DNA of 64,000 nt from Amphiscolops sp. MND2022 (GCA_964187785.1 OZ076409.1:51028001-51092000), one strand, 5' to 3'; shown: positions 8,001 to 47,000, counted from the stretch's first letter. Translations and numbers: made by a program. The notes: generated by a model from the sequence alone, not told the origin.

Positions 8001-11000
8001 AAATATTTCATACTTGGTGATTTTGAATTTTTTAAAAATGCATTTTTGTTTCGTTTTCTCAACAAGTGAATGTAACCTTCTAGACTTTCTCCTGCAACTC
8101 AATACGGAACATTTTATTTTATCTCATGGATTATTTTACAAGTACTCACGGATCGTCTGTTTTCTCCATCTTGAACCTTTTTTTCTGACCCTTCTTTCCT
8201 ATTCGGTTCATAGTCACTATCATTATGCATGTAGATTTTCTGAAGTGCAATCCCAGGTTTCGAACATTGTCAATTGTCACCTAAACAGGAATTAGTCAAA
8301 GAAGATATCAAAATTCAAAACTTTGAATTATCAAATCAATTTTTACGTTTCTTTTGAGGCATCCATCGAAAACATTCATCCACTCCAAGAGGAAACTCAC
8401 CGTGATAACAATTTCAGGAAGAGACGAGCCAATGGAAGTGTCGGCATCATTGCTGGTTCCACCCAGCAAAAAAGTTCTGAAACAAAATTCGAATTAAAGT
8501 TGATCGTTTTCAAAAGTGTTTTTAGTCGGCGTTTTTTTGTATAAGTGCCTGACTGTTACAGTGAGAAGTTTGTTTTCGTCAGATTGAGTGGTCCACTTTT
8601 TACAAACTGTTCGCCTAAATTCTATACGTCTAAACCCAAAAAGACCCAGCTATATTATGATTCTTTGGCGATATCACAAAACAACGTATTGAAACTCAAT
8701 ACGGGATAGGTTGGTTGGTAGATTAAATGTCTGCTGCATAATAGGTACGCTGATCAAGCCACAGTTGGCGTCGGTTTTCGTTTGTTTTCATTCACTTTTG
8801 TTGAAACTCTTGGCAAGATCTTGTAAAATAGTACATGATCTTGGCGCTCTTGATAAAGATTTGCCACGATTCTTACCATGGGTTTCTAGAAAATTCAAAA
8901 AGCTTGTCAAGAATTTGCACACATTGGGAAGGGCACCTTTCCAAATTTTGGCACTCTGAAACCTTTATTCTCATTCTAAGAAATTCATAGAAACCATCCT
9001 GAGCAGTTTGATGAAATTGGAATTTTTGAGCCTTAAGCGGATGGCCGACGTGAGCCGTTGTCGTTTTGTTCTGTCTTCAATTTATCAATAAACACAAATG
9101 CATGCACACTTGTGTGAGAATCCGCACTTGGTCGGTCTGCCAGCACAATCCGCATAAGGTCGAACATTTACACTCACATTTGACCGGTCGAACGAAACAG
9201 TCGAACTTTCACATAAAAGCGGTCGAACATGCACATTCTATCTTAGACTGTCTGAGACTACAAAAGATAGAAAAAGCCACATGCCTTGGTAGGACATCAA
9301 CACAAACTTGAATGTGTTTTGCAAAAGCTGATTTCATGCTTTTTTGCTCCTTTCCTAATCAGTCTATGACGAATTATAGTTTTTTGTTCTACCTGTTGCT
9401 GTAAAAATTAGGCAATTTGCACGCATTCTTTTAATAAACCTTTCCCCCCATTGCTAATTAAAAAATCTTGATTTTCAACATAGATATAAAAATTTCAGAA
9501 TTGTACTCTAAAAGTAACAAAATTTGAAAATTTTTGGGCAAAATCTAGTTCGTCTTGCGTTCTTTACACTGAATAACCGTTCGAAAGAAACTAAAAGCCA
9601 AGTCAAAGCCAATAAGATGAGTGAGTCAAGTGAGGATGAGTGAGTCAATTTATTCGCAAAAAAATATTGCATTCGTTAATTTTCAATTCTTTAAGCGAAT
9701 AAAAGTGTCCGCTAACGCTTTATATTGTCGCTAACTATCGATATCGCTAGTTTATGCAGAATTTTCGCTACCGCTATCGCTGCCACACCTCTGATAACAC
9801 ATTAGGAACAAAATAAAACTATTTCTAACTTAAACAAAATAAGGAAATATTTGGACGCAAAAGTGAATTCAGAAAACACAAAACTGAATAAGCAGAAGCA
9901 ATAACTTTATCAACAAAGTCCGATAAACATTTCAAATTTATTGAACAAGCTGTCAGAAAATTCAAAATTCAAAACAGTTAAGTCAATTCAGCGTTCACAA
10001 AATATAAAAATTGTCGATATAAATACCATTTCCTAAAAATAAAAAAGTTTTGAACTGAAAGTCTTTGAAATTTCCAACAGTTTTCATTTTCTGGCATCGC
10101 TGACCTGCATATTCCTCACTTTGTCCTTGATATCTTGCCACTTTTGTGCATGAGGATACCTCTTCATTGCTTCCAAACAGACATCTTGACCGGGCAGACG
10201 CCCTTCCATCATTTCTTTTCGAAATTCCTTTCTCAACGCCTTTTCTTGATCTTTCGGCCATTGTCGTCTGGTGGCACCTTTTGGCCTTCCAGCAGTTGTT
10301 CTCTTCTTTTTCTTGGGCCTTCTTTGTTCGGGTTCTTCCTCAGAACCATGGGAAACTTCATCTGCTTGGAATGAAGCGTCATCGTCTGACTTTTCTTCCT
10401 TGTCGTTGTCGTCGTCATCGTCATCGTCATCTTCATCAGACTCATCCTTCTTCCCTTTCTCTTTGGTTCGTTGTGATGTGCTGCGGCTTGAAGTCGCCTT
10501 CGAGGAACTCGGAAGATTTGAATCAGCAGGAGTTTCTACTTCTTCACCTGCATCCTGGAAAGTTCAAAATTTGGGGAAATTATGACACGAAGACGTGATT
10601 TTGCTTTGCAGCTTTTCGAAGAGCAAACTTCTCAAACACCGTATGCTACTATTTCAACAAAGAACTCAAGAAACTAAATTCCGACACTTGTTCAATTGTT
10701 AATCCAATTCGAAGAGAAATCAGTATTCTCAAACACCGGGCGTTGCTATTTCAACAACAAATTCAAGAAACTAAACTCCGACACTTTTTTAACTGTTAGT
10801 TCAATTCGAAGTGAAATTAGTATTCTCAAACACCGGGCGTTGCTAATTCAACAAAGAATTAAAAAAACTGAACTCCGACACTTTTTTAATTGTTAATTCA
10901 ATTCGAAGTGAAAAGTATTCTCAAACACCGGGCGTTGCTATTTCAACTGAAGCTTTTAAAATTATTGAAAAAAAATTAAAATTGGAATTCAAACTTATCA

Positions 11001-14000
11001 ACCTATTCGCAATAGTATTTGAAGTCAAATTAGTAGAAATTCTCACCGAATCGTCAAGATTCAAAGTCGGCTGGAGTGTGTCAAGGTTCTCTAGATAGGC
11101 GTCTTTGACCTTGCCTTTGTCCGCAATGTATAATAGTTTGGTCATTTTTGCCAGGTTTACAGCATCAGTGTGCATCCTGTAGTACTTGTCGTGAACATTC
11201 AGGTCGTGTCCCAGGAAGTCGGCCACCCAAACTCTTTGGTTTTGTGGTAAATCCAAGAACTGGGCTGCAGTGGCAAGATACTTGCGGAGCTTTGTAGATC
11301 GGAACACTTTTTTGTCTTGCAGCTTAAACTCTTCAGCGTATTTCCTCAAAACATCGATGCTTCTGTAGAATTGTTCGCCTCCCTCTGTTTGGAAGAAGTA
11401 GTTGTCACTTTTCAGCTTATCGTCATTAATCATGATGTCTATCACTTCTAGTGTTTTAGGTGGAATCAAAACGGGAACAAATTTTCCACCTTTCCCAGGC
11501 AGTCGCAGCAACGTGTAATACTTTGCGAACATCATTTCAACTTCTGTGAGCTTAAAAAGTTCGTAATCCGTTGTTTGTGCTCTCTGTAAAGCCAGACTTC
11601 TTTGGAGAATCATGTCTTTTCGTGTTACACCCGAAACTTCGCGATCTCGCTTCTTATTAAAACTGACAAGATCAGCAATCACGATTTGTTTCATTTCGGC
11701 GTAGTTGTGAGTCGTTTTGGCCAGCAAACCCGAAATTTTTGCCCCAATCTTTTCTCTGAAGCGCATCATATCCGAAGTTGGAATGACAAGGTGTGTCGAC
11801 TCGTTCTGTTTCTTCAGCATCCTGTTAAAACAATCAAAACATACAAGGCCAATATGAAAAAAAAACTCATTTTGGAAATACGGAATTAAAGCTGAAAACA
11901 TTGAAAAAAGGTTGATGCTATCCGGATATGCACCCACGTGGGATTGTCATAATTCACGACAGCTTCCCTCCTGCACTGTTGCCGCAATGGAAGACTCAAC
12001 ATTGTCAATTTGACGCTTAAGGGCGCGACATCCGCTCAGGCATAGTACCGAGAACGGAATTAAATGAAAGATACTACAAAAATTAAAAAGTTGTCAAACG
12101 ACGTACATCTGCATTTTTCTGAAGTGCAAAATCATTTTAGTTTGTTTTTGTTGAATTTGAAAGTCAGTATGAGACGTTTTTCGTGGTGACATGAAGTGTT
12201 AAAAAATAAAAAACTAACTCACATTTTGCTGGTGCCGAAATGGCTGCCCACTCACTATCTAGAATTTTCAAGAACTCTCTTGCTGTTTCCGATATTGACT
12301 TCTTTTTCCACATCCAAGCCTGGTTGCGTAAGAACTGAGCAGCTGTTTTCAGAATTGATCCCATTTCAATCCTGTAGGACTTTTCGAATGTCATAACAGC
12401 TTCTTTCACTCTTGGCCACATTTCAGGATTAATGACTTCAATCAAGTATGAGCAATGGAGTTTGTGTACAAGCTTGGCCATTGTTCTCATTCTGTCGTTG
12501 ATTTGAAGGTAACCCTCGTCAGCTTTTCTCTTATCGAAGTACCACTGGCCAAGGTATCGTATCAGAGGATCACGCCTTGCAATATTCCCATATTCATCAT
12601 GTCTCATTCGTGTGAAAACATATTGTTCAAATGGGGTGTCTTTGGTAGCTTTCACTTCGAGCATCAATGCAAATGTAGCAGCCTTGATATTTTTTTCCTG
12701 TATTGCTCAAAGCTATCTTTCCACTTGCTGGACAATCTGTTTTATGTCGATACATTGTTTTTTTCTGGAAGAAACCGAGACAACTTGGACAAGGGGCAAA
12801 GTCATAAGCAGATGGATGTTCAGCTACAGTTGGATCCCTGGCAACAATCAATTTGCTCTCGAAGTTTTGGGTCTCGCTGCACTTCTTGAAAACAGCGATG
12901 TTGTATTTATAGAGACCTTCATAGACAATCAAGTGAGTGAGATTGTCCTTCTCTCTCCTCAGTTTTTTAAGTTCGGTCTCAGTTTGAACAGTTTCCCTGC
13001 CTTCTTCAAGATCCTCAATTTCCTTGTTAATCCTTTGAAGGTTTAAAACTCGGAGTTCTTTGCGATGAAATTTATCCACATGACGTGTCAGTTTTTGCAC
13101 CATAGTGGCATTTTCTGGTTCAGTGAAGGCACAGTAAGGACAACATTTTGTTTTTCTGTGTTTATTCAGGGCGACTTGAATTTTGATCTTCCGAAGAAAT
13201 TTAGCATTGAATTGGCATTGTCCTGTTTGTTGGACGTACTTCTCCATTACAAGTTCCATTTCCTGATCGTCCATTTCTTGGGTATCCGTTGAAGTTGTAG
13301 CTGACTTGTAAGAACTTTCACTAATCTGACTGATACCTTCTGCATCCAAAACAACTTCTTTGGTTATTCCAACCAGAGGACCGCATTTCTTCGTTTTTGA
13401 TCTTGTTCGTTCCAATGGCTCATCTTCCGATGGGTATTCGCTGCTCACATCCTCATCGTCCGTGTCATCATCACTTCCGGGAGTGAATCGATCGCTCGAC
13501 GAGGTGGACGAATCTTTACTAGAATCTTCAGTTAATCCACTGGAACATGGGGGCTGCGATTCTTCGTCGCTTGAGCATTGTTCGGAGACGGAATCTTCGC
13601 TTTCTTCAGCTTCCGGTTTCGGCTGTAGGTATTGACGGCCCTTGGCGAGCAGTTTTACAGCTCTGGTTGTTCCCTTCCTGGGTGTCAACTGCAAAACAAC
13701 ACACTAAGTTGAACATCACTATCAACCAATTGAAATGTTTTCGGTAAAACTTCAACAGAAAAACAGCAATTTTCATTAGCAAAACCTTAGAAACTCCGCC
13801 TTCAATTACTTTTTGCTTTATTCCAAAACATCTTTTTTCTACAATTGTTTTTTGACCAGTAGATGTCTCACGAAAGAAACCAAGGGGCTCCGGCATTGTG
13901 AATTTTGGAGAGCTAGGTCGAACATGCGACGTATGTTCGACCAAATGTGATGAACTTTTATGCGAGACGAAAAACGACTACTGAAAAACTTTTGTGGTTT

Positions 14001-17000
14001 TTATCAAGGAAAGTGAACCAAAAGAAAACTAGGTTTACTTTGTGAGGTAGAGAATTATCCGGAGTTGAAGAACTTTCTTCCTTTTTCTGGTATTTGTTCG
14101 TCGTCAACCTTTGAACATATTCCTCGATAGCTGAGTCTATGTTCTTCGGCTTCTTGGCTTGCGGCTGTTTCGTTGATGTCAGGGTCGGCTTTTTGACAGC
14201 CTTTTTTTTTATCTCCACTTGCTGTTGGTTGTTGAAGCGGTTCAGCTGGTCTTGATGCTCCGCAAATGGTTGATGATCTCACTGGTCCACTTTTAGAAGA
14301 CAACGCTGCGACGGACGGCTCATTCGCGTCAATGACAGATGCCAGTTCCGAAGCATGTTCATCAGCAACATCTGGCTTGGCTTCTCCACTTTTAGCTGGT
14401 GGTTTCGGATCAACTATCTCGCCGACAGCTGGCTTGGCTTCTCCACTTTTAGCTGCTCCTTTCTGAGCAAATTTCTCTCCGACAACTGGCTTGGCTTCTC
14501 CAGTTTTAGCTGGTGGTTTCTGAGCAACTTTCTCTCCGGCAGCTGGCTTGGCTTCTCCAGGTTTGGCTGGTGGTTCCGGAACAACTATCTTGCCGACAGC
14601 TGGCTTGGCTTCTCCACTTTTAGCTGTTGGTTTCTGAGCAACTTTCTCTCCGACAGCTGGCTTGGCTTGTCCAGGTTTGGCTGGTGGTTCCGGAACAACT
14701 ATCTCGCCGACAGCTGGCCTGGCTTCTCCACTTTTAGCAGGTGGTTTCTGAGCAACTTTCTCTCCGGCAGATGGCTTGGCTTCTCCAGTTTTAGCTGGTA
14801 GTTTCGGAACAACTATCTCGCCGACAGCTGGCCTGGCTTCTCCACTTTTAGCTGGTGGTTTCTGAGCAAGTTTCTCTCCGACAGCTGGCTTGGTTCCTCC
14901 AGTTTTAGCAGGTGGTTTCTGAGCACCTTTCTCTCCGACAGCTGGCTTGGCTTCTCCACTTTTAGCTTGAGGTTTTGAAGTAAGTTTCTCTACGGCAGCT
15001 GGCTTGGCTTCTCCAGGTTTAGCTGATGGTTCCGAAACAACTATCTCTCCGACAGCTGTTATGTCTTCTCCACTTTTAGCTGGTGGTTTTGAAGCAAGTT
15101 TCTCTCCGACAGCTGGCTTGGCTTCTCCACTTTTAGCAGGTGGTTTTGAAGTAAGTTTCTCTCCGGCAGCTGGCTTGGCTTCTCCACTTTTAGCTGATGG
15201 TTCCGAAACAACTATCTCTCCGACAGCTGTTATGTCTTCTCCACTTTTAGCTGGTGGTTTTGAAGCAAGTTTCTCTCCGACAGCTGGCTTGGCTTCTCCA
15301 CTTTTAGCAGGTGGTTTTGAAGTAAGTTTCTCTCCGGCAGCTGGCTTGGCTTCTCCACTTTTAGCAGGTGGTTTTGAAGTAAGTTTCTCTCCGGCAGCTT
15401 GCTTGGCTTCTCCCCTTCTAGCTGGTGACTTCGGAGCAACTTTCTTTCCGACAGCTGGCTTGGCTTCTCCACTTTTAGTTGGTGACTTAGGAGCAACTTT
15501 CTCTCCGACAGCTGGCTTGGCTTCTCCACTTTTAGTTGGTGACATAGGAGCAACTTTCTCTCCGACAGCTGGCTTGGCTTCTCCACTTTTAGTTGGTGAC
15601 ATAGGAGCAATGGCATGGCATCAAGTTTTTTTACGACAGCTGCCTCGGCTACTCCTAATGTAGTTGGTTGTTTTGAATCATCTTTTCCTGAGGCAGTTGC
15701 TCTGAGTGCCACCACGCATTTCGAGAAACCTTTTACTACACCGGCTGTCTGTTCCGACTTCTCATCTTCGGTTTTTGATTCGGAATCAATTTTCTGTGTA
15801 ATGTTGGCTTTCGATTCTGGTTTTGACGTTTCTATTTTCTGGACCTGGTGTTTTAAAACAACTCTACTTCTGGTCTTCGGCTTCTCTTCCTTTGTAACAG
15901 CTGATTTGTTTGTAACGTATTCTTCGCATGGCGCTTGTCCGGCTGCAGTTAACCTCATTTCATTTTCGGTAAGTGTAAGCATTTGTGCCGTTGCAACCAC
16001 GAGTTCTTTTGTAGATTTTGGGTTTTCCAAATTAACTGGTGTCTCACTTTCGGGAACCGCGGTGTTTTTTCGCCACTCGGCATTTGAGAAGCCATAATCA
16101 TATCGCAGCTCTTCTCCTTAAACAAGGTTGCACGTGAATTTTTCAAGTAAAGCTCATTTCTTTATCTGCGAAGAAAAACACTTGTGTTCCTTTTAAGCTT
16201 CCCCTTATTCCATTTTCTAAAACTAGATATCAATTTTCCTGTGCCCACGTAAAAAGTTTCTTGCTACCCGCTGGTGACAATATTATATTGTTGTTTTCTC
16301 CAGTTTCATTTTTTGGCGCTTCGAAATCTATCAAAATTTTTCTTTCAAAATTGAAACTATGAAAATTTTCAAATGAGTCAAAAATATTTCTGAATTATAT
16401 CAAAACTTATTCTATTTTTGGACAATGTAATTCGATTCATGTAAAACGGACTCAGTATGATGCTGTTTCTTACTAGCAGAAGTTCGGACTGGCAGTTAGT
16501 AAAATTTGTCGTCGTGTTTTTACAGTCACAAGGTCGTACTCGCACTTGGTAGGACATGACTGATTTTACAAGCACATGGTCGGACTTGCACTTGATTGAT
16601 CATGATGTTCAAGCACCACGCGTTGCTACTGTTGTCGCTGTGACCCACCAATGTATATCTTGTAATTAAAAAAATGTCAATTTTTCGAAACCAATTTTTT
16701 GTTCAATCTAATGGCACTGGCATCCTCAGACTTGGGGGCAAATGGTTAACGAAACAATTTTCACGGATGTTTTTTCCACAATGTGATGGTTGGAAAAAAT
16801 GCTAACTTGATAAACTTTTTTCGAAGTTACAATTGTTCTAATTTTGGAACTCTTGTTGCAGAAATTCCAATGAAACATTTTCAGAGATACCAAAAGTTCT
16901 AAAACTTCCCTTGATGTTTCGTATTTCTGGCACTTTCTTAACTTATTTGTTGTTGAACTTTGTAATTTTAGGCAAAAGAGCTGCGGTATTTTGAAACGCG

Positions 17001-20000
17001 TTCGCACAAAGGTATATTTTTGGTAAAGTAATTGGTTGTTTTAACTTCAAAGGTTCTATCTTATGTTAGTGTTGTTAGTATTGTGGACAATCCCGCTATC
17101 GCGCGATTGTCGAGCTCATCTTTTGGGGACAGCTCGTTACAGTATATGCAAATAGATGGATATGATGGTCCAATGCCAATAACGACTGCGTTACACTATT
17201 TCAGTTTTCTGCATTGCGAAAAAAATTTGAATTTAGCAAATATTTTCAATTTTTTGCTGGAGTCGACCGTCATTACGCGGCAGCCCTTCGCGCCACTTCA
17301 TGTCGGTTTTTGTCAAAACGGGCTACTTGTAACGCAGAACAAGTAATGTATTGTCTCTCCGCTTCGCTGCCTTGCTGCACATAAGTGCATACTAGGTGCA
17401 TAAGAACATAGCTGATTACATTATCATAATTAGTTCATTGGTGTTTAGCACACAAACTCAATCACTTTGCTTTTTCCCTAATTCAATTTTCAACCAATCA
17501 GAAGCGTTTATTAAACGTTTTTGGCGCAATGAAAAGCTTACTAAATTTCAACGTTTAGGGAAACAGCCAAAATTCTGGCGGTTACCAGAAAAAGTCCATT
17601 TCGAGGGATTGTTTAAAAAGATTACGTACCAAATAACAAGAGCAAATAACAAAAACAAAATTAGTTTCAAATAACATTAAATTGAAAGTAATTTCTTATA
17701 AAATAAAAATCAAACTGAATACTTGGTTGAAAAATTGAACTCACGTAATTTTATCTGTAATTTTTAATACTTTTTTCAGTGAATCCTTTGAATTTTCTAT
17801 AATGTTGAACACTAAAACTTTCTCGTGTTTTTATTTGCTCTAATGCTATTTGGGAATTCACCGTTTGAAAACAATTTTGCTCAATGTCATGCAATTTAGA
17901 AATTATGATTAAGATTTGGGATTTATGCTAAGCCCCATCCTGGTTTAAAGACGTCACCTGGAATCGAGAAACTTGAACACCTCTCAAATAGGGAACTTGA
18001 TTTGAGCCTATCAAATTATGTACTTACTCATCCCTGGAACTTTTGCCAAAAGTGATTGGAATATCAACGCCCTGTGTTAGTGAGTTATCCCAACTTAGAT
18101 GATTATATACATTCCGTATAATGAAACAATTTGGCATCTGGAAAGCAGTGATGTCCATTTATAATAATATAAATGACTTTTCATGTGCCAGTGGAAAGGA
18201 CAGAAAAAACTTATACAGCTCGTGGACTCTATTCCAAGCAACGCCCGGTGTTCGTGAATTTTTTCACGACTTGGTCGAACATGAACACTACTTTTCACTA
18301 TCGGGTTAAAATAGCAACGCCCGGTGCTTGAATTCTATAACGACTTAGTCGAACATAAACACTACTACTTATCACTACCTGGTTAAAATAGCAACGCCCG
18401 GTGTTTGAATTTTATGGTGACTTAGTCGAACATAAACACTACTACTTATCACTACCTGGTTAAAATAGCAACGCCCGGTGTTTGAATTTTATGGTGACTT
18501 GGTCGAACATAAACACTACTAGTTTGTGTTTTGAAATAGCAACGCCCGGTGTTTGAGCTTCATTACCACTTGGTTGAACTTAAACATTATTTTTCATTCC
18601 CTGTACACGAAAGTTATTTTTCAACGTTATATATGGCTCTTTGCTGCAAAACATCCGCTCTAATGCTCAATGTTGACCCATGATAATCCTATTTTCCAAA
18701 GAAAAAACCAAAAAACGTTCAGAAGGGCCTAATTAGAAGTTAACTTGGGCTCCGCGACAGTACCAAAAACGAACATAAAACGCGATTTTTTATGCAAGAA
18801 CAATATGTTTGAAATATAAATAGAACGTTTTTCAAATTGCACTTGGTGTGGCCTTACCCTGTACTTTACTAAGCATCGATGGGACTTTTTAACGCAGTCG
18901 TGTTTGTCTTCAATCACCAAGTAATTTACTGATTGCTCTCTCCTAATTGCCAGCTTGTATGCAAAGCTCTCAACTTGGTTCATTCACCACCCAACACCCC
19001 ATGGGGATGGCAGGGTTTTTTGACGCTTCGCTTATTATTGTTTAAAAAATAAAAAGGACGTTTTCGAAAATGCACTCGGTGGGACCTGAAACTAGTTTAC
19101 TAAGCATTGATGGGTCTTTAACCGCAATCTTGTTTGTTTCTATTCGCCAAGTAAATAAGTGGTTGTCCCCCTCCTGATTAAACTCAAATCAACAGCTTGT
19201 ATGGCAAGTTCTCAACTTGGTTCATTCACCACCCAACACCTGACAGGCGGATAACTATACTCTATCTTAATTTTTAGCACTTTTTTCAATCGATAAACTA
19301 TTCGGAATCAATTAGTGGGACATACTTTGTGGGAATTGAAAAATTACTAGAGCGTGGTCATGTGTCAAAAGTATGGAAGAAAGGGACCATGTGTTCAATC
19401 CTCCTCAAGGGGCCGCTACCTGTCAGTTGAAAGTTATTCTTTTAAATTTTAAGGCGAAGAAAATTTGCGTTTGAAGAACATAGTTTGAACAAAATTTGTA
19501 TTTGAATCTCAAACTGTCAAAATGAAATTAGTTTCCAATATGAACGTTTAAGATGCTAAGTTTAAGTCTTTTACATTCGAACACTGTCACTGATTTCTCA
19601 AAACATTTCTGACTGTCATTTTGACTGTTTTTTGGTAGCAACTAAATCTGGGTTTCAATAACTTGAGAATTCTGGGAAACATTACAGAAGATTGTTCCAC
19701 AATTTGAAAAATTAAACTGACCTGGAAGAATAACACGAGTTGCCAGGAAGATGCAATGTGGTCTGCCCTCGTCGTCATGAACCTTTTTCATTCGACAGTT
19801 GGCAGCAACTGATTTGTCCTTGTCGTTGATAAACCTCGCCAAGCCAGAGTTCGTCTCATCGGAAGTGTCAATGAACACTGTGTCTTTTCCCTCCTGAACT
19901 TCCATCACGTAGTCAAAGTTGGCGACTTGAGTTGCTCTCCTCGGCCCCCAATAACTCAGGAGAAACTCTTGCGCTTCAAATTGCTTTTTCACGAAAAGCC

Positions 20001-23000
20001 CTCTTCCAGTCGTTCCATTGGCGAATTTGACGGTCTGGACAATGAAATCCTTCGGATCAGAATAGAGGAAGTCTTTCCACGAATCAGTTTTTCGCGCAAC
20101 ACTACGAGTAGACATGGTTTTCTGAAGAGCAAGAAAGGTAGGGTTTTGTCACACAGAGCAGTTCAACCAAAATTTAACATCAATAAAGCCAATGAAATAT
20201 GAACTCTACATTATAATAAATAAGTAAACCTTTTAGTGTTCAACTGAAACCGTTCGATTATGTTTTAGAATTTAGGAAGAATGAAAAAATGTGCTCAATG
20301 ACAGTGTTGCTACTAGGAGAAAATTCAATCGAGAAAATCTAATACTTTGCGGATTTATGGTGTCTACTTTTGATCCGGAAAAAACATTAGTGAGCCAAAA
20401 TACTGTGATTCATTGTTTTAGCGAGAAAAAAAAAGAACAAAATTTTGAACCAATGTTGTCAGTTTTGAAAGCAAAGAGTTCTCAAGAAATCAATGTCAGC
20501 TTCGAATTGAAGAAAAGCCAAAGTTTTCATTGGTCTGGTCACGCTCCCATTTTCTGTTCAATTTTGTTGGACCCAAGATTCTATTTTGTCCCAGTGGAAG
20601 TCCCAAGTGGATTCGCAGTACATGTAGAGGAAAACCTCCCAGGGGCTCTCGAAGGGCTCTTTTCCTTTGGGGTGTCTACGTTGGTCAGCCTTGATGATAG
20701 CCAGCATCTTCCTCAGCTCAACTTTACTGACAGTGCTCTCTGAACGATGACGATATGACCACTCTCTGTAGAGGAATATGACAACCAAGGCTTCAAAGTG
20801 AGGAAATGCAAAGGAGGGTTGGAAACCTTGTTCGAGTTCCTTCTCGAAGGCCAGGGCGCTCCGATACATGTGCTTCTCCATAATGAAGTTACAGCCAAAC
20901 GCCACGCTCTCTTCCGGAGTGAACACAAAATGGATCCATTGACTGGGTAAGAACAGACAATCGCCTTTTTCTAGCACTATCTGATGCGTTGTCACGTCCC
21001 GGTGAAAGCCGAAGAAGAATGAACTGAAACAGAGAGCATGTTGAAGAAGCAACTATTAACCCAGGAATTGGTCATAGGGATCTAAAATTCACTACCCTTC
21101 GTTCATCGCGCACATAGTTGTCATATATAAAAATCGGTGGTAGATTAATACCATCGATCAATAGCAACGCTCGGTGCTGGAAAAAAAAGTAACAATTGTT
21201 GCGACCTAAATTTGAGATAAAAAAGGAACGCCCGGTGCTGGAAAAAAATTAATTATTGCGGCTTCATATTTAAGATGAAGAAGCAACGCCGTGATGGAAA
21301 ACGAGAGTGTTTTTAGGATTCGAACGAAAAAGCAATCGATCATTGATGCTTCTCCAACGTTCTAAAAATTGAAGAAAAAACCTAAAAATTACATTTGAAT
21401 TTGTACCTATTTTTCAGAACATTTATGACGCAAGCAAAGCTCCTGATCATGTGCCTTTGAAAAAGTCTCACTTACTTTCTGTTACCGCTCGCAAGCCATT
21501 CCTCAAAAAGCTTTTGATTTTCCTCGGTTGGCTCCACAACAAAGAAGTGTTTCTGGCCCTTTGCCAAAATGTAGAAAACGGATGTGCCCGTGAAGTCCTG
21601 ATGCCAGTTAGTTTGCGCTCCAGCTTCTGACATCAGCAGGTAGTCACTAATTCCTGATGTGCAATCAAATGCCAACTGGTTTTTGGGGCTCATAGAATTC
21701 TTCATGCAATGGCCAAAGGAAATGTCCGTCACTATATTGGGCAAACAAAACCGGTGGACCATCCCGCTCTTTGAATCCGCGTTGAAGTCAATCACATTCA
21801 TCGGATGATATTCAGGCTCAAGGCTGCGGTCTTCATTGTGCTCAAGAAACTCCTCCAGAGTGAATTCATCTTCATTTTCTTGAATCGAAGAGAAACAGAC
21901 ATTAATTTTGACCTCCCCTGGAATTCCCTCTGTTACACAACGAAAAGACGTCAAGCTTTCAGCAGGAGGAGTTGCGATACCAGGAAGTTTGTTGGTACAC
22001 TGGCGTATAACAACAGGTTTTGAAGGGCTCCCGTTGCAAAACTTGGATCTAATATCGTCCACATTCAGCACATTAAAATCATTTGTGGCAGGCGGTGCTG
22101 TTGCAAACACATGCTGCTGGAATTCCACAGAACCAACTTTGACTCCAATTGGGGGAAGCGAACTGAAGTTTGTTGAGTAAGAAGCCACGCCCTCCACGGC
22201 AGTCTCCAGCTGTTCCTCGACCGCGACTTCGGTTGTCCTCGGAGGTGTTTTTTTTGAGTCTTCAGCTCTCTCTTGAACGTCAACCGCTTCAGCACCCGTA
22301 AGAGTTTCTTCGGATGAGACTTCACTTCTCTCTCCAAGAGAAGCAAGGGTTTCCAGTTTAAATTGAAGCGACTCGTCACTTGAGAAAGGAGGGCTCTCAT
22401 CCGCGAGAGATCGTCGTTCTGGGGTCTCTGGAACAAACGGTTCCAAAACTGCGCTTTGGTCGACAAGATTTGCACTTTCCTCAACTGCACCAGAGGATGT
22501 AGTGGGCTTTTGTTCCAAAAACGTGAAAGTTGTCGCCGTTTGGGAAGTACTGGTTGTGGCTGGAGCAAGATGGTACTTTTTTTTGTGCCGCGTTAGATCA
22601 AAACTTCGAGTCGTTGTCGTGCCACAAAATTCACACTCGAAGATACCTTTTTGGCGTTCTGAAACATAAGACTCGTTATGCGAAGGAATCAAACGGAAGC
22701 CAAAAAGAATGCTACAATATTCGACTTGGTGCCAGTAAAAAAGTTGGTTATAATCGAAGTTTATCGATCAATCTTAGATGTAATCTAGTCACTCTTCATG
22801 CGGTGCAACACCCGGTGCTGGAGAATGAGACTGTTCCTTAAAACTCGAAGAAAAAGCAACGCCCAGTGCTACAAAAATGAGGTTAAAACAAGCGCGACAC
22901 AATTCAACTAGCCACTGTCATGAATACTATATTGGTATTTATTTATATATTATTCAGGACAGGGCTTGTCAAACTATGCCAGAGACAGGTTATTCTAACA

Positions 23001-26000
23001 TATCTCCCTGAATTTCGTTTTATGTATTCAATTAAAAAAGAAGTATCGAAACACTTTTGACGAAAATCACTTTCTGAGTTTTTCATTGAAATCTTTTTCA
23101 GAAACGCAGGATCTTTTTCTCAAAATATTGAAGAATAGTCTGTATTTCCAACCACCACTTGCAGGAAAATACAGTCCAGGTTGAAATTTAAAAACACAGC
23201 ATAACAATTTCTGACAAAGACTGCATCAGACTTCATTCATTGAACTCCGTTGAATGAAGCGAGAAGGTCTTGGTCCCAAAAATGTTGAACGAAGAATCGA
23301 GAAACGATATCAACTTTACTACCAGTAACAATGTTTTTCGAGTGGAGCAGAAATTAAAAAAAACCCATCAAACACTCAATTAAACTACCAGAATTCCTTC
23401 ACCTGGATTCATTCAACCAAAACAAATCATTGTAACAAACTTTCAAAATGTTAAAATTTAACATGTCGAGCAGATTAGAACTGCACCATGTGTCTTTCAA
23501 GGAAACCATGTTGAACAAAACAAGGAAGTGCCGGCTTCGAAAAGGATCCATCCCTTACTTCCTTCAACACAATTTTCCGCGCAGGAACGAAAAAAAAATG
23601 TTTAACGCGACGTATTTGATCTGAGAAGCAACTCTCCTGCTATAGTGTAGTGTTCATATAGTCCGAGCATTGCACCCAACTAAAAGAGCGTCTGAGGTTC
23701 GATGTTCATTTGAAATTCTTTATACGTACAAATGGAAAGAGTTCTACGAAGTTGTAACAATTTTATCGAAAAATTTTCTCTCCAGAACCCACTTGGTTTA
23801 TTTCTTGGGAAAATCAAGAAAAAATGAAGGAAAAGAGGAAAAAATTTAACTTTTTTAGCAGAAACGATCACGCACTTGCCGTGGCGTTCATGTTCGACCT
23901 ATGCTGCTGAGTGTTCAGTTGCTGAAAGGTTGAAAATCATAGTGAAAGGTCGGACATTCTACAGGAGTTCGACCTTTGCCCCTAATTGTGATTACCACAG
24001 CACACAATGAATCTCGTGATCGCTTATCTCATTTCGTGATTTTATGTCGACAAAAATTGGGCTCGGAACCAATTGACGAGGTTCAACTTGATTGCATCGC
24101 ATTTTTTTGAGAATTCTAGCGTCAATTTGAATTTTGACACCTTAATCATTTCAAACTAGTAACGCAAGGTGCTGGTGATTACTACATCTTTACTGTACTT
24201 TAATCTGAAAAAGAGCTAGTGAAAAAGCAGCACCCGAAACTTGAAATATGTTTGAAAAGAAAATTTTGATTAGATTTTATTGCTGAGAAAATTTCTTTTG
24301 AAATAGGCGCCTTTAACACAAAAAGACATTTGGTCTTTTCGGACAAAAAGGTTTGAAAATTAGGGGAAAATAAAATCACAGCAATTTTCGTAACGAGTGT
24401 TCGTAAAACTTCCGGACCGCGCGTCAGCGTTTTGCCCTTCTTTCATTTTCACATGTTACCAAGGTTTAATTTCAAACAAATTGATGTTTTTATGTAACCG
24501 AACAACCGTTCAGGAAAAGCAACGCCCAGTGCTGAAAAAAACACAATGTCAATGTGATTCCGCCTTAAAATTTGGACAAAAATAGCAACGCCCGGTGCTG
24601 GAAAAGATTGGGTTTTTGCGCAGTATTGTTTTCATTTAGAAAAGCGTGGCCCTGTGCTGGAAAACTGGACTGTTATCGAGCCTTATAGTTTGAACGGAAA
24701 TTGTAACGCCCGGTGCTAGAAAAACGAGTTTGTTATTGTGCCTGAAGAGTTGAACAAACATAGCAACTCCCGGTGCTGGAAATAGAAAATTTTCGCGCCT
24801 TGTTGTCACGACTCTTCAGACGGACGACTGTCTGGTGATAAGAGTCTGAGTCTACTTAAAAGAAACTTAGTTTATTCAAAGTATCAACTACGATGTAATT
24901 TGCTCTCAGAACCTATTTGTTTTCAATATTGATTTTTCAAGTTTCTATCAGGGAGGTACTAAAGGGAACATGCTCGACGTTGATCACCTGGACATTGACC
25001 CAAGGGATATAATGGTTTTCATATATCAATCGGGACGACGTCTAGTTGAATCAGGTCAAAAAATTGCATTCGAAAGAGCAACAACTTTATCCGAACCCTT
25101 CGTGACACTTTCGTTTTGTGATTAGAAAAATGAAAAGTCCCGCGTGAAAGAAAGAAAAATGAACTGTTTACACTTGAAAACGGAAGACAAGAAAACAGAT
25201 ATTGCGATTCTTCTCGAGTATGATACATAGGTTCTACGAAAGACTTCTGTAAACACATAACGTAACACTTTCTGACGAAGACTGAATCAGACTTCTTTCA
25301 TTGAACTTTTTTGAATGAAGCGAGAAGGTCTTGGTCTCAAAAATGTTGAACGAGGATTCGACAAAGGACTTCAACCATTACTACAGGTAACAACCTATTT
25401 CGAGTAGAACAGACTCAAAAAATAAACGTAAACGCTTGTTCAAACCACCAGAATTTATTCATGTGGTTTCATTCATCTAATGAAAAGTATTGTGACAATT
25501 TGATAAAAAGGTCGTTACAATTTCAGACTAAGACTGCACCATGTTCATTTCAGTGGAACTATATTGAAGCACACAAGTGGGTCTTGGGCTCGAAAATTTT
25601 GAAAGCGATGAATCGAGGAATCGTTCCCTCCCTTGCTCTTCCGGTAACAGAACATTCCGACCAGAACGAAACAAACATCATTTTACGTGACACATTTGGT
25701 CTGGTCGCCAATACTCCTGCTATAAGGTAGTGTTCATATAGTAAGAGCATTGCGCCCAACCGTAAGAGCGTCCAAGTTTTTGTTATGTATATGATGTTCT
25801 TCACACATACAGAAGGAATGAGTTCTACCAAGTTTAAAAAAAACTATCGAAATGTTTTCTATCCAGGACTCAGTTAGGATTTTCTCTCGAAAATTTTTGA
25901 ATAAAAGAAAATAGAGTAAAAACAAAATTTTTTTAAAGCAGAAACGATCATGCAACTGCAATGTCGTTCATGTTCGACCTGTGCTGCTGGGTTTTTAATT

Positions 26001-29000
26001 GCTAAGAGGGTGAAAATCATAGTCGAAGGTCGAACATTCTACATTTCATTTTATACAAGTTAATTTAATTAATTTAATTTTACAAGCTTTAATTTTAAAC
26101 AAACTGATGTTTATTATACACTTGGACAGCCAAGCAGAAATGCAACTCCTGGTGCTGGAAAAAAATTGAGAAAGGTATTCGGCCCCAAAATTTGAACAAA
26201 AAGCAACGCCCGGTGCTGGGAAACTAGACTGTTATTGGGCGTTAAACTTTGAACAGAAAGAGCAACTGTTGATTTTTGAAGTTTCTACAGGAAACACGCT
26301 AAACATAGATCACCTGGATATTGACCCAAGGGATATAATGGTTTTCATATATCACTCGGGACAACGCTTGGTTGAATCAGGTCAAAAGATTGTATTTGAA
26401 AGGGAAGCAACAATTTTTATCCCAACCTTTTGTGACACTTTCGTTTTGTGATTGGAAAATTGGCTAGCAAAAATATATTAAATATATTGTCCATCTTGAT
26501 ACATGTATTTGAAAAAAATCAATTTAATCAAAAATTCATTTTCTTTTGACTTATTCAAAACACTAAAGATTTTTGTTTTATTCCAGCAAGGGGGGTTCGT
26601 GTTTGAAATTAAAATACGCGTGAGAATTTCCTAACGCGTATATATATTTTTGTGTTTTAAAAAAACAATAAGTTTGATTGAGTATTTCAAACAATAATTT
26701 GAAAATAGGTTTTTCGAAAAATCAACTGACAACACATCAATTTCATTTTTTTTTCATTGTTTAGTAAAATCAAGCATTTAATGTTATTTCAGTTTGCGGG
26801 GTCAATTTGAATATTTCAAGTTTTAAGGGGACGAGAACTTCCTAAAGCTTCCTAAAACTTCCTATACCGAACAATAATTTGAAATTAACTGTATTTCAAA
26901 AAATGAACTGAGTTATCTAATCATGAAGTAAAGTTCAACGTTCAAAAAAATCGAAGTTTTAATTTTTCAATGTTCCTGTTGGGGGGTTTGATTATAATAA
27001 TTTGTGAATGTGCATGAATTTCCAAATGCGCATAACGTTTTGGTTTTTGAAAGTTAAGTCCGACTTACAGTATTCCAAGCAATAAACTAATTTGATGAAT
27101 TTAATTCAAAGGAACTAGTTGATTGTTTCAAACGTTGTTCCAGTTGGGGAGTATTTGATTAAACCAATTGATAATATTATTTTCTGCATCATATAATTCC
27201 CAACCACCTTATAATTCTCAACCACTGAGCGTTGCTATTTTAATGAACAACCAATATGAAAACATTAGCCGAAAGGATTTTGTCAGGACTACAAAAAACC
27301 GAGTTAGTGTCAAGCAGCTCTCAACACTCATTTGCAACTCAATTATCGGTTCACCTTCAGACACATACAATTGCGTATACTGTAACGAGCTTCCCCTAAC
27401 GAATGATGAACTTGACAGCGTGATTAACCACTACACTAACTCGGTTTGAAGAGAAGCAGTTTTAACTTAATCATGCAAGATTACGTACCAAATAGCATAT
27501 AAGAGAAAATAACGAAACGAAATTAGTCCCATTCAACGAAAAAGCAAAATTAGTTTCATAAAAACATTTAAAAAAACCGAATACAGTTAAACAATTAGCT
27601 CACGAATTTTGTCTCTAATGTTGATACATTTTTAGTGAGTGTTTTGAATTGTGAATGCTTTTGACCACAAAAACTTTCTCGTAAACAATTTTATTGTTTC
27701 CTGAAAAGCATTTCATTTTTTTAATTTGAAACCTTTAGTTTATTTGCTATTATGTTAGTTCGACCTTGTGCTGGTAAAAAAGTCTCATGTCCTACCAAGT
27801 GCGGGTCCGACCTTGTGCTAGTAAAATTACGACCGCATATAGGACATTAACACAAAACGTGTTGTGCAAAAGCTGATTTCATGCTTTTTTGCTCCTTTCC
27901 TAAAAAACTATACACAAGTGTCCAGCGTCACCAGTGATGACTTTACACGAGGGGGTGCCCTCGTTCAGAATTTAACCCTGAAAAACAGCAAAGGAAGAAA
28001 CCCCCTCCTGTTTTAGGTTTTTAGCCATGTTTGGGATCAAAATTTTCAAACTTGCTGTTAGGAATAGTGGGTTGAAATTTCATTGATTGCCTTGCAAACG
28101 TTTTAAGCACCACTAACATGCCCCCCGTTGAGAAATTTCAAACACCGCCCCTGTGCGTCACGGAATGGAAAATAAACTACAATTGGAAACTGAAGACCAG
28201 AAATGAGATTACTCTTATTTCAAGAACGATACATAGGTTCTACGAAAGCTTCTGTAATTGAAGACTTTTTAAAAAAGGTTAATTCCCAAATAGCAAACAA
28301 CATAAGTCTTGAAAACTAGACTGTTACTGCAACTTAAGATTAGAATAAAAGAACAACGCTCGGTCCTGGAAATTGAGACTATGACTGTGCCTTAAAATTC
28401 GAACAAAAAAGCAACGCCCGGTGCTAACAAACTAGACTGTTACTGCGCCTTAAGATTCGAAGAAAAAAGCAACGCCCGGTACTGGAAATTGAGACTATGA
28501 CTGTGCCTTAAAATTCGAACAAAAAAGCAACGCCCGGTGCTAACAAACTAGACTGTTACTGCGCCTTAAGATTCGAAGAAAAAAGCAACACCCGGTACTG
28601 GAAATTGAGACTATGACTGTGCCTTGAAATTCGAACAAAAAAGCAACGCCCGGTGCTAACAAACTAGACTGTTACTGCGTCTTAAGATTCGAAGAAAAAA
28701 GCAACGCCCGGTACTGGAAATTGAGACTATGACTGTGCCTTGAAATTCGAACAAAAAAGCAACGCCCGGTGCTAACAAACTAGACTGTTACTGCGCCTTA
28801 AGATTCGAAGAAAAAGCAACGCCCGGTATTGGAAATTGAGACTATGATTGCGCCTTAAGATTCGAAGAAGAAAGCAACGCCCGGTACTGGAAATTGAGAC
28901 TATGACTGTGCCTTAAAATTCGAACTAAAAAGCAACGCCCGGTGCTAACAAACTAGACTGTTACTGCGCCTTAAGATTCGAAGAAAAAAGCAACGCCCGT

Positions 29001-44000: not shown

Positions 44001-47000
44001 TATGTAAAATACATTTGACAGCAAGCCATACTGACAGGCAGAAAGGAAACGTGTTCAAATGTTTGCCTGCTCAGTATGGCTAGCTAAGCCGCCTACGGTC
44101 AATTGGCCAATCAGAGTGCAGTTTGTAATAGCCATCTTATTACTTATTACGTAACTGTGCTAATAACTATTTAGAATGGACCAAAGCGGCCAACTAACTT
44201 TACCGGCCTTATTGTGCTTTGATGCTATATTTGATTGGTATTCAGTAATTACAAATAGGACGAAAGCGGCTATGTAACATAGCCGTCCCTATTCACTGTA
44301 TTAATTGTCTTGGTGCTATGCAGTAAATAAGGCCTATCATGGCCGGTTGGCACGATGAATACTCAAATGCTGTATACCTGCCATATGAAATTGGTATTCC
44401 AGTTAATTAGTGGTTTGAAGATGCAAATAACCCACCCCATGCAATAAACAGACATATACACTGTTAACATGTAATTGTTGCTTTCTCATATTATGATGGA
44501 ACTGAACTAGAAAACCCCAACGGCCATACGCCGAATAGGGCCTTCATGAATTGTTGTGCATGTAAACTGTTGCTTGCATGAATTATACTTGTAAACAATT
44601 TGATCCATATGTGAATGAGACTTGTCGGGACCTTTGATCTAGCCGCCCGCACAAGTCTAGAATGATGTCATGTTGCTATTAATAGTTTCAGTGTATCTAT
44701 TTTTAGTTTGCGTTGCTATTTTTAGTATCATGACCGTTACAATTTTGCCTGTCATGCCCTCTGGGGTATATATACCCAAGTCGGCCTGATAAAGGTTAAT
44801 CATAATTTTGCAGCTACCTGATACACTACGCTCATTTTGATTAATCTGAAAATAGAAATACTTGTCCACAGGAACAATTCAAATATTTTCTCCTGGAATA
44901 AAATTTTCAATGCCTTCCACGAGGAGACAAAAGGCCAAGTCTAGAAAATCCAGAGAATTAGATATGTTGTCCGACTACGGCAACATGGACGTGATGCTAG
45001 GTGGAAGAAGTTCCAACTCTATAGAAAGAGAACTCGATAGCTTGATTAACGTCCCTGAGGGACAACGAGACTTTCAGTCTTTTCCAAATAGAGAAAACTC
45101 ATCTCAAGAAAATGAGATCAGAGACATTGATAGTAGAAATGAACCAGTTAGAGGAAGTATACTAATTGAGTCTATCAATACGCTATCTAGTGAAGTGAAC
45201 GCTAGGATGTCACGCGAGATGGAGGCTATGATGGACCTAATGCAATCACAAATTACCAGAGCCATTAGTTCTGCTATAAGCGAGAGAATTATTCCGGAAA
45301 TACAAAATATGGTTGAAAACTTGCCTTTGGGTCAAAATGGCGTTGGACCAGATACGTCCTTAAATGAGGATAGAGTCAGAAGCGCATGGGAGAACACAAA
45401 TACAAGATTGACAAAGAAGGACTCAAGGTCCGCTTGTGACCTGAGAGAACATTCGGACGTTAGTCCTTACATGGTGACAGGAGCTACCGAACTCCAACAG
45501 CCGATTCCTGAATTCCTCACAGGACGAATTCACTCTCAGCCAGACCTCCAAAGACGAGAATCTACTCATGATACAACTCTGGATACAACTCTGCCAATAG
45601 CGGAGCCTGCTCCGGCAGAACAGCAACAAGACCCTATCAACCGATTGGCAGATGTCCTGGTAAACCTCCAAAATAAACCACACTCGATGACAATTAGACC
45701 AGTCACGACGAACCCCATGACATTTGACGGCAAAACAGAGAAATTTGAATTGTTTGAAGATTTATTTCATACAATGATAAAGATGCAGCCTGCTATGACT
45801 GAACAAATGAAAATAAACCATTTTCATTCTCTGCTCAGAAAAGGAGCACTGCAAACTTTCCGAAATATAAACTCCATAAACCGTCAAACATTAGAAGACG
45901 TATTGGTCAAATTCCGCAGAAAGTACGTCAAACCCGAGTCTCAAGCCACAGCTAAACATAAGTGGCATAGGCTCATCTTTGATCCCAACACAATGAAACT
46001 ACCCGATTTTCTTGAGGAACTCAACCAGGGTGCCGAGAAGGCCTTTGGGGAAAACGCCAAAAGCATGATCGACAGTCTCCTGTATGCTAAATTACCCCCA
46101 AAACTCAAAAGATCAGTCAATATGGCTCGACTGGAAAACGGGACCTACGAGGAGATTGTGGCACATTTGGAACAGGAACTCGAGTTAAACGTATTAGAAG
46201 AATCTGATGACCTACCCATTGCTACAATGGCTTCGTCGTCCAACAAATCCCGAAATTTACTATCTAATGGCATTGACACCAACAAAAATAACCAATGCTC
46301 ATACTGCAAGGCAGAGGACCACTTCTGGAAAAATTGTCCAAAACTGAAAAAGAAGAAAGAATCAGAGGCCAAAGACGGCAAGAAGCCTCAACGGCAAACT
46401 TATCCAGAATGTCCCACCTGCAGCAAAACCAATCACCCAGCAGAGAAATGTTGGCGTGGCGCTGGTGCCCATCTCCGTCCAAAAAGAAATAGACAAGACT
46501 CCTCCAAAGACACGGAGCCCTCTGAAGACGAAGGCAATCGCACCAAGAATGAAAAATCTACAACATCCTCATCAGGCCAATCGAACTCCAAAAAACCGGA
46601 ATCAAAAAACTAATTTTGCCACGACTCCAAATCTCTGACCAAATGTCGATACGACAATATGTCATATCTGACCCAGCTAACATCGCTTATAAGCAATCAC
46701 AAGAGAACATCACAGGGACCCCATCGACTGTCTGGCAGCAGCAGATGGTGGAAGCCTGTATTCAAACTCAACATATTATTCACAGTGACCACCCATACCT
46801 ATATCGACGTAATAACCTTACTAAAGACTCAGAAACCCAATTCCGACCCTTACAAACTGTCGAAGACTACAACCCCCAATACTACGACCCCGAGTACGGC
46901 AAAGACCCGTACTGGGATGATGATTTATACGATAAACACAATTTACAATTTCGGAACGACGACTACCCGCCAACAGACGATGAGGATGACCCTGACATTG

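Follow-up and report, generated by a model that had tools for sequence, protein, structure and literature searches.

The 64,000-nucleotide stretch of Amphiscolops sp. DNA analysed here (the window) raises the question of what a gene resembling a KDM2/KDM7 demethylase does directly upstream of a gene that joins a SET domain to a predicted tyrosine recombinase (SET-YR). The reading preferred here, to which we give about an even chance, is that this JmjC gene is multicopy cargo beside the SET–recombinase gene, and that the demethylase it is predicted to encode would likely remove a silencing mark on its own element.

The initial annotation had described an intact JmjC gene ending about 440 bp upstream of the SET start codon on the same strand, with complete HxD...H iron ligands, a KDM2/KDM7-type signature and a lone C2H2 finger. 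The gene and the candidates for its 5' end are laid out as follows.

22793..22799, minus strand: putative tiny exon, a candidate for the first of the JmjC gene, with an ATG, a phase-1 donor at 22792 and a 134-bp intron
29171..29347, minus strand: alternative candidate upstream exon (putative), a Cys/His finger-like frame running from an acceptor to a phase-1 GTAAGT donor
21476..22658, minus strand: JmjC exon A, with the C2H2 finger, an acidic low-complexity linker and the first JmjC part
22570..22641, minus strand: single C2H2 zinc finger (Pfam PF00096, E 0.0019, under the curated cut-off)
21550..21603, minus strand: H-Q-D iron ligands to the 2-oxoglutarate-binding lysine
21024..21475, minus strand: phase-2 intron of 452 bp, GTAAGT..TTTCAG, containing a 14-bp motif twice
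20558..21023, minus strand: JmjC exon B, with the third iron ligand (His, 20932), the pocket Asn (20890), a helical tail and the stop
20116..20557, minus strand: 442-bp spacer between JmjC and SET, with an acceptor-like cttcag at 20127-20122

The placement was confirmed: on the minus strand, 442 bp separate the JmjC stop codon (20560-20558) from the SET ATG (20115). The zinc-finger–JmjC gene has one intron and 548 codons without an internal stop, and the exon A/B junction is uninterrupted in the intronless relatives P0034 and P0036. The iron ligands were found at 21603 (H), 21597 (D) and 20932 (H), and all of the structure matches (14/14 for each exon) were KDM2/KDM7-group proteins. The finger is indeed a single one; in the exons read, Pfam returned no PHD, CXXC or Jumonji-helical-domain match. 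It is retained across subfamilies down to ~46% identity, with weak matches in P0034, P0198, P0163 and P0018. The spacer holds the acceptor site that had been pointed out, cttcag followed by AAAACCATG at 20122/20121, and contains no AATAAA/ATTAAA and no GTRAG/GTAA donor.

The claim of an intact gene held in part. The active site is intact, but the gene is not complete inside 19722-22692, where 22692 is a TTG. Exon A starts at a phase-1 acceptor (tttcag), its first in-frame ATG is residue 286, at 21801 within the catalytic region, and the S-E/G translated at the acceptor is also where similarity starts in four diverged subfamilies. Because the finger has no in-frame ATG before it and the 5' edge of exon A is likely the splice acceptor at 22659, an upstream exon is needed. 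The phase-1 donor of the candidate exon at 29171..29347 is compatible with that acceptor, and the exon has no Pfam match. Three other arrangements were rejected: the TTG at 22692 as a start, the ATG at 22667, which is out of frame, and splicing of exon A to SET, in which the exon-A donor joins the SET frame out of phase.

Could the JmjC protein be an enzyme? The nine KDM2A catalytic-pocket residues named in the available part of PMC4197961 are kept 9/9 (H212, D214, H284, I144, Y199, L201, F215, N298 and Y222, with the I144 equivalent located by MAFFT alignment), including 6/6 of the methyl-lysine pocket (I144, Y199, L201, F215, N298, Y222). The closest solved structure is KDM2A for exon A (E 9.5e-11) and PHF8 for exon B (E 1.7e-8). 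The 2-oxoglutarate ligands Asn, Thr and Lys, which we take to be N142, T209 and K229 in KDM2A numbering, are all kept as well, and the residues T, H, D, Y, K, H and N are the same in 16/16 aligned clade members. The structure of an intronless relative, P0176, rather than of the window's spliced protein, was modelled (pLDDT 79), and its best match was PHF8/KDM7 (E 4.5e-16, TM 0.62). Judged from these residues, the JmjC protein is probably catalytically active on methyl-lysine.

Its relation to the host enzymes is more distant. Of 149 sequences gathered for phylogeny, 16 without core coverage were dropped to leave 133, and 44 were taken into the final IQ-TREE tree, which separates an 18-member clade holding the window's JmjC from 26 canonical KDM2/KDM7 proteins at 100/100, on a branch of 1.01. 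The tree links the clade to a KDM7-like group at 86.5/66, too weakly to name a nearest canonical group. Against a KDM2 orthologue stand the missing CXXC and PHD matches and a position outside the CXXC-bearing group; against a KDM7/PHF8 orthologue stand, in the exons read, a C2H2 finger in place of the PHD and a clade of its own. The protein shares with the KDM7 group (PHF8, KIAA1718/KDM7A, ceKDM7A) and KDM2A the fold, the HxD..H ligands, all nine pocket residues and the Asp/Tyr signature of mono/dimethyl enzymes, but differs in its N-terminal C2H2 finger, its long-branch clade, its copy number and its linkage to a recombinase. The KDM7 group acts on repressive marks and KDM2 acts on H3K36me2; the clade cannot be placed with one rather than the other.

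The exons of the neighbouring gene are as follows.

19722..20115, minus strand: SET-YR exon 1, a SETD8/PR-Set7-like SET domain to its last strand (Pfam SET, E 1.7e-6)
14039..16116, minus strand: SET-YR exon 2, the end of SET (GEELRYDYG), then a coding repeat of 57 bp x 21.6, with frame breaks at ~15610 and ~14205
12223..13688, minus strand: SET-YR exon 3, an acidic tract, Cys/His-rich segments and a helical region, with a frame break at ~12692 in a 7-base homopolymer
11047..11821, minus strand: SET-YR exon 4, the predicted tyrosine-recombinase catalytic domain
10084..10554, minus strand: SET-YR last exon, acidic and basic tracts and the stop

The SET-YR gene is broken in the window copy by frame changes at ~15610, 14205 and 12692 and by a splice-phase clash at 12223/11821, so this copy is likely immobile by itself, unless the breaks are assembly errors. 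An independent contig of 6754 bp from sequencing run X1, ~94% identical, bridges 18459-25251 with the JmjC–SET order kept; the X1 contigs retain the introns and so do not bear on splicing or expression. In the X1 copy both genes show decay, 41 bases are missing at 15569-15611 and there is one base fewer at 12692. A second run, X2, gave short pieces (151 bp for those listed) and was left out.

The recombinase is predicted from motifs and a language-model lead. Its R-K-R-H-Y set is present, with the His of HxxR replaced, and the catalytic residues R100, K152, R221, H247 and Y256 (numbered in P0041) vary little or not at all across 11 relatives; the spacing of this motif we take to be that of a tyrosine recombinase. 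ESM Atlas gave PF00589 at 0.91, carried by 29% of the cluster. Pfam gave no match at E 0.05, PDB no sequence match, and PHROGs at best an integrase (E 0.2, 1/11 members). The model has low confidence (pLDDT 40), and Foldseek/VIA found nothing significant for it, with topoisomerase IB and Xer chains at E 0.2-1.1. Longer fused YR proteins numbered 0 among 2207 candidates, which is weak evidence.

Does the JmjC gene belong to this recombinase's element or to the host? It had been proposed that a single-copy host KDM2/7 orthologue in conserved synteny, or a JmjC that never accompanies other copies of the recombinase, would refute the mobile-element reading; neither is what was found. There were 40 relatives at 44-99% identity, the JmjC proteins form ten clusters of 6-31 members each, and they spread over 120 distinct-sized contigs of at least 15 kb, outside the canonical KDM2/7 groups. 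Linkage was counted among the members listed, at most 15 per cluster (162 JmjC and 114 YR proteins, contigs <15 kb excluded), with co-location read as contigs of equal size, so that one locus may recur via several assemblies. On this count a listed JmjC occurs on 35/69 contigs with a close YR and 4/27 with a distant YR (Fisher p 0.0012), and a close JmjC on 34/69 close-YR contigs versus 2/27 sister-YR contigs (p 0.0001). The linkage persists for contigs <100 kb (17/30 vs 2/8), and the identities of JmjC and YR to the window copy covary (rho 0.58, n=28). Distant JmjC subfamilies seldom share a contig with this YR (3/27 with a close YR, 2/27 with a distant YR). The sister YR group, whose largest cluster has 255 members, mostly goes without a listed JmjC (present on 4/27 contigs), so the gene looks dispensable for spread. 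Among viral contigs there were no relatives of JmjC or YR; JGI metagenomes held no relatives of P0025 and one 1701-bp contig with JmjC alone, too short to show neighbours. Taken together, the copy number, the position outside KDM2/7 and the co-occurrence with the recombinase support a mobile-element-encoded JmjC with an intact active site, and the gene is very probably cargo of a recombinase transposon.

An improbable alternative is that the writer and the eraser share a target: SET would write H4K20me1, or methylate the recombinase or another non-histone protein, JmjC would remove the mark, and the pair would time transposition. PHF8 can remove H4K20me1, the best structure matches to SET are KMT5A/SETD8 (E 1.4e-5; the top 14 of 22), and the two genes, 442 bp apart, stay together. 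However, ~12 residues of the substrate-side insert of SETD8 are missing from the SET domain, which has ND in place of NH, the JmjC protein is not a PHF8 orthologue and is without its PHD, and few sister-YR contigs carry a listed JmjC. A query with the 24-residue SET tail returned no matches. The SET domain is also N-terminal here, unlike its C-terminal placement in short SETD8/PR-Set7, the host architecture described in the available part of PMC10368294. That JmjC counterbalances its own SET, as the initial annotation suggested, found no direct support.

About equally improbable is a passenger, that is, a captured host KDM2/7 fragment which rides the element without benefit and decays. Damaged copies are many (of the 120 listed proteins that span all ten exon-A sites, 18 have lost at least one; there are frameshifted proteins and the X1 copy), JmjC is absent from most sister-YR contigs, and the window's finger has no preceding ATG. 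Set against this, the clade is an ancient one that stands apart from host enzymes, and the window JmjC keeps its 548 codons open beside a broken SET-YR. Selective retention is visible in the comparisons: subfamilies 46-55% identical have lost neither the finger nor any catalytic residue, while linker identity falls to ~22%, as in P0198 (linker 28/130, core 42/74) and P0034 (linker 30/130, core 39/74, exon B 94/154).

Positions fixed or nearly so in host enzymes are changed in the clade, for instance the Gly before the pocket Asn (114/114 canonical, 0/19 clade) and the Asp that precedes the first His (106/114 canonical, 0/19 clade). These changes suggest that the substrate may differ. They would also suit a protein that counters silencing non-catalytically, or acts as a decoy binding methylated tails or host silencing factors, as in fission-yeast Epe1, a JmjC protein for which non-enzymatic anti-silencing is reported in the source available. 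That explanation is given a very low probability, since the iron, cofactor and pocket residues are all kept clade-wide and a structural role alone needs none of them.

For the preferred reading, the extent of the carrier and its possible address matter.

10734..40188, no strand: span of the 14-bp motif (AGCAACGCCCGGTG), which occurs 44 times across introns, spacers and six tandem arrays
9115..42729, no strand: candidate outer element extent, with a 21-bp perfect inverted match at 9115-9135/42709-42729

The 44 occurrences of the motif compare with 0.01 expected. Three, at the left end, are on the minus strand, and 40/41 of the others are on the plus strand; the six arrays differ in unit length. 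Elsewhere in the 64-kb window the motif is absent, even with 2 mismatches (the span is then 10.7-41.3 kb). Inside the candidate ends there is a second, weak inverted match, and copies of the same end-like motif recur internally at 16553, 27791 and 32248; no microsatellite adjoins 9115 or 42729, which are candidate rather than settled ends. Crypton-like elements have no terminal inverted repeats and short terminal direct repeats or none, and some CryptonV families insert in microsatellites. The YR element is multicopy and has no reverse transcriptase of its own, the sole one in the window lying in a separate LTR element at 47-52 kb. CpG observed/expected stays near 1 throughout the window and does not set the element apart.

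The carrier is likely a large Crypton-like DNA transposon. With Crypton and CryptonV (available parts of PMC3212892 and PMC8869645) it shares a predicted tyrosine recombinase, introns, ends that are hard to define and no reverse transcriptase, and it differs by its SET fusion, its JmjC cargo and a possible length >30 kb; in the accessible text of PMC3212892, "SET domain" and "methyltransferase" each occur 0 times. The least probable explanation is that segmental duplication multiplied a cluster of host genes, with no transposon involved, which would suit the lack of established ends, target-site repeats and empty sites and of a Pfam match for the recombinase at E 0.05, but not the copies on ~100 different-sized contigs with subfamily structure and frequent decay, the predicted catalytic residues kept by the recombinase, the multicopy N-terminal SETD8-like genes with DNA_BRE_C in Hydractinia (PMC10368294 S8 Table, as available), or a 14-bp motif that ends sharply on both sides.

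In the preferred reading, the JmjC gene, which sits beside and travels with the SET–recombinase gene, is part of what is likely a large Crypton-like transposon; its protein, a predicted mono/dimethyl-lysine demethylase, would likely be recruited to the DNA of the element itself; and removal of the silencing mark there would prevent the host from switching the element off. By analogy with the KDM7 group the target may be a repressive histone mark on the element, tentatively H3K9me1/2 or H3K27me2. It is possible, if doubtful, that the 14-bp motif serves as an address, bound either by the C2H2 finger, which takes the place of the host PHD/CXXC readers, or by the SET-YR protein. The erasing of repressive marks on its own DNA, as first proposed, is plausible by analogy with VANC (PMC5735166) and viral KDM4-like genes (PMC11244446), and it agrees with a motif confined to the element.

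As described in the available part of PMC11244446, giant endogenous viral elements of Amoebidium carry KDM4-like JmjC genes that have lost reader domains and kept introns. These are likewise parasite-borne, multicopy and proposed to counter silencing; they are KDM4 rather than KDM2/7-like and are carried by a giant virus of a protist, and the accessible text reports no finger or adjacent SET-recombinase. VANC of Arabidopsis VANDAL, per the available part of PMC5735166, targets a short motif that has been amplified into tandem repeats lying in introns and upstream regions. VANC and, very probably, the JmjC gene are accessory genes of DNA transposons, with an element-restricted repeated motif and repeat-rich variable protein regions, but VANC acts on DNA methylation with binding shown experimentally, whereas here the enzyme is predicted and the motif a candidate, and the carrier here has a recombinase. 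No DUF1985/DUF287 match indicating VANC homology was found (Pfam, 23 frames).

A fuller version, which we consider rather unlikely, is an animal transposon that edits its own chromatin: the finger would read the repeated 14-bp address and deliver a parasite-borne demethylase of a previously unnamed KDM2/7-like clade, while the methyltransferase carried by the recombinase would deposit a new mark where the element lands. If true, it would be enzymatic, sequence-specific anti-silencing in animals, and some "extra" SETD8-like and JHD1-like early-embryo genes would be recast as transposon genes; a single-finger, motif-directed demethylase, if real, would give locus-specific chromatin editing a compact basis to start from. 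Little is settled about how animal transposons resist silencing, and the clearest counter-silencing case found is the plant system. The element suits direct testing: it has a candidate eraser that is intact and a candidate DNA address, some subfamilies have the cargo and others largely lack it, and both intact and decayed copies appear to share one genome.

Where animal annotations list SETD8-like and KDM2/7-like genes in multiple copies, these may also be transposon cargo. The literature searched, with subscription papers and Repbase Reports outside it, described no animal YR transposon with a JmjC gene. The SETD8-like genes expanded in Hydractinia, Hydra and sea urchin, treated as host methyltransferases in the available part of PMC10368294, share the N-terminal SETD8-like domain in long proteins, and 3 of the 24 listed for Hydractinia also carry DNA_BRE_C (S8 Table). 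Two weakly JHD1-like Hydractinia transcripts, neither placed beside a SET gene in the source as available, are activated at 4 h, and one of them lies in a repeat cluster.

The JmjC gene is well supported as cargo of the element that encodes the SET domain and the predicted tyrosine recombinase (YR), while we infer its target mark, its targeting and any opposition to SET. In the proposed mechanism, a Crypton-like element would express a finger-guided demethylase, which would take a repressive mono- or dimethyl mark off the element's own chromatin and so keep the SET-recombinase gene transcribed.

On the minus strand, the open frame between an acceptor at 22659 and the GTAAGT donor at 21475 encodes a C2H2 finger, then an acidic linker, then the beginning of the JmjC domain. 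After a phase 2 intron of 452 bp, the second exon ends with a stop at 20558. Spliced in silico, the two exons give 548 codons with no stops, and two relatives without the intron (P0034 and P0036) are continuous over the junction. The SET start codon at 20115 lies 442 bp beyond this stop, and the distance, common strand and iron ligands described in the initial annotation were all recovered. The gene had also been placed, complete, inside 19722..22692, and this did not hold: 22692 is a TTG and the earliest in-frame ATG is residue 286. Because similarity begins at the translated 22659 acceptor in four diverged JmjC subfamilies, a further exon upstream of 22659 is likely. Two phase-compatible candidates were found:

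22799, minus strand, candidate upstream exon of seven bases
29347-29171, minus strand, candidate finger-like upstream exon

The suggested comparison with host KDM2/KDM7 enzymes put the window's JmjC in a separate clade, and judged from these trees it is not the host orthologue. For the trees, 1.84 billion representatives were searched with the relative P0176 as query, and 133 of 149 sequences were kept. FastTree split the window's JmjC and 18 others from 114 canonical proteins with support of 0.998, and a 44-sequence IQ-TREE gave the same split at 100/100 on a branch of 1.01. In the latter tree the canonical group nearest to the clade has support of just 86.5/66, and tree position does not point to a particular mark that the enzyme would remove. 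Many of the canonical matches (73 scanned) carry PHD, CXXC or Jumonji-helical domains, none of which was found by Pfam scan in the window's JmjC and its relatives. Host-fixed positions beside the active site are altered in the clade. Ten other members that were looked up are unnamed or "hypothetical" and sit on short contigs. Stand-alone JmjC frames from several sources (P0280, P0282-P0285, P0288, P0290, P0293, P0304, P0321 and L001 at 618-1250) form a clade with a common HPMN..D and S.GH signature.

The partner gene has five exons reaching to 10084, encoding the SET domain, a 57-bp coding repeat, Cys/His-rich segments and the predicted recombinase domain. The SET domain is closest to SETD8, from which it differs in lacking about 12 residues of the SETD8 insert and in having ND in place of NH. 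In one rival to the proposed mechanism, SET and JmjC form a writer-eraser cycle on one target. R, K, R, H and Y residues are conserved in the recombinase domain, with a spacing that we take to be that of tyrosine recombinases. These residues, an ESM Atlas lead that supports recombinase identity, and the SETD8-plus-DNA_BRE_C layout listed for 3/24 Hydractinia genes (PMC10368294, S8 Table) are the grounds on which the C-terminal domain is predicted to be a tyrosine recombinase. A low-confidence YR model (pLDDT 40) gave no significant structural match. Most of the nearest Atlas clusters come from chordates and arthropods, and the host is accordingly likely an animal. In the window copy the reading frame is broken near 15610, 14205 and 12692, and the splice at 12223/11821 would join incompatible phases. 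The copy from sequencing run X1 differs from the window at two of the break sites, by 41 bases and 1 base; two of the breaks fall within homopolymer runs and could be errors of the assembly. The 57-bp repeat (14368-15598, 21.6 copies) is Lys/Pro/Ala-rich with a histone-H1-like Pfam hint, and the region is 891 bases shorter in X1, a multiple of three. The S4/S9 tables of PMC10368294 also list a weakly JHD1-like Hydractinia transcript (E 9e-4) that is activated at 4 h; it belongs to a repeat cluster of scaffold HyS0006, where a SETD8-like gene is listed too.

Each JmjC exon matched the KDM2/KDM7 group in 14/14 solved structures found by sequence, and the predicted model of P0176 (pLDDT 79) has PHF8 as its best structural match. 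Like KDM2/KDM7, the protein has the Asp/Tyr pair that marks enzymes of mono- and dimethyl lysine. All nine residues of the KDM2A pocket as described in PMC4197961 (H212, D214, H284, I144, Y199, L201, F215, N298 and Y222) are retained. Across the JmjC subfamilies the core is conserved while the linker has drifted, which together with the pocket makes catalytic activity likely. Two further rivals are that the JmjC is a neutral passenger and that it acts non-catalytically.

Co-occurrence of the JmjC with the YR family, also proposed earlier, was seen. Contigs of at least 15 kb were counted, with JmjC and YR homologue contigs equated by equal size; the counts are lower bounds from partial lists, and a locus may figure in them more than once if more than one assembly contributed. 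Among the matches listed, 120 such contigs had JmjC, 93 had YR and 38 had both. A listed JmjC was on at least 35/69 contigs with a close YR (at least 85% identical to the window's) vs at least 4/27 with a distant YR from the sister group (Fisher p 0.0012). The excess is present both below 100 kb (17/30 vs 2/8) and above (18/39 vs 2/19), so contig size does not explain the linkage. The JmjC and YR identities to the window copy covary (rho 0.58, n=28), and the ~82% JmjC subfamily partners one YR cluster. A 6754-bp contig from X1, independent and ~94% identical, reaches from SET exon 1 across the spacer and the two JmjC exons into 2.5 kb of upstream sequence; its JmjC-SET copy is decayed. A last rival is that the JmjC-SET copies come from segmental duplication. 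Two results speak against a tight JmjC-YR pairing. In the large sister YR group the listed JmjC is mostly absent, and distant JmjC subfamilies are seldom on contigs with this YR family (3/27 close, 2/27 distant, among the matches listed). The gene thus has the look of an accessory carried by a single recombinase lineage. Two of the distant subfamilies, the P0034 and P0038 clusters (46-48%), occur on some of the contigs that have close subfamilies but seldom on those with the window's recombinase type, and may be carried by other elements; one of the two lacks introns and has a peptide repeat.

A 14-bp motif had 44 matches at one mismatch vs 0.01 expected, and in a search across the 64-kb window it was confined to 10734-40188. 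Its sites are intronic in both genes, lie in spacers or belong to six tandem arrays whose units measure 49 to 97 bp, a layout like that described for VANC target motifs of VANDAL transposons (PMC5735166). The motif is a candidate address for an element protein; its outward orientation at either end would fit a recombinase-binding site equally well. Support for the candidate element ends, at about 9.1 and 42.7 kb, is weak, with an alignment score of 78 vs a control maximum of 64 (54 windows), and their end-like motif is also present as internal copies.

Transposon anti-silencing is documented for VANC (PMC5735166), and KDM4-like JmjC genes in giant-virus insertions of Amoebidium provide a parasite-borne precedent (PMC11244446). 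The available text of three Crypton papers (PMC3212892, PMC8869645 and PMC5753468) does not mention SET or JmjC cargo, and that of PMC9406493 deals with such enzymes as factors of the host. Full-text searches, which covered openly accessible papers with few of their supplements and did not extend to Repbase Reports, turned up no JmjC described from a YR transposon of an animal.

Within the element, divergent small paralogous frames at 32745-33122 (minus strand) and 36979-37380 (plus strand) share 34% identity over 105 aa (E 2e-21), had no match in Pfam or Atlas, and are possible further cargo. Internal duplications of 71-85% identity (23189-26462, 26863-27804 and 31256-32261) and a ~200-bp module in both orientations at 17.6, 27.5, 29.9, 32.0 and 39.5 kb are also present, and the upstream part looks assembled from repeated pieces. 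To its left, two frames at 7008-8123, one with a weak PH-domain match (E 5e-4), are probably host gene exons. A Gypsy-type LTR retrotransposon occupies 43843-59658. Its terminal repeats of 1630 bp are 99.4% identical, it has gag and pol frames with a dUTPase-like match, and on its antisense strand several long frames (52033-56157) could be placed in no clear Pfam family. A 126-bp inverted repeat (97%) at 6551-6892 and a 45-bp inverted pair flanking a 29-bp palindromic array at 62194-63021 are probably small non-autonomous elements.
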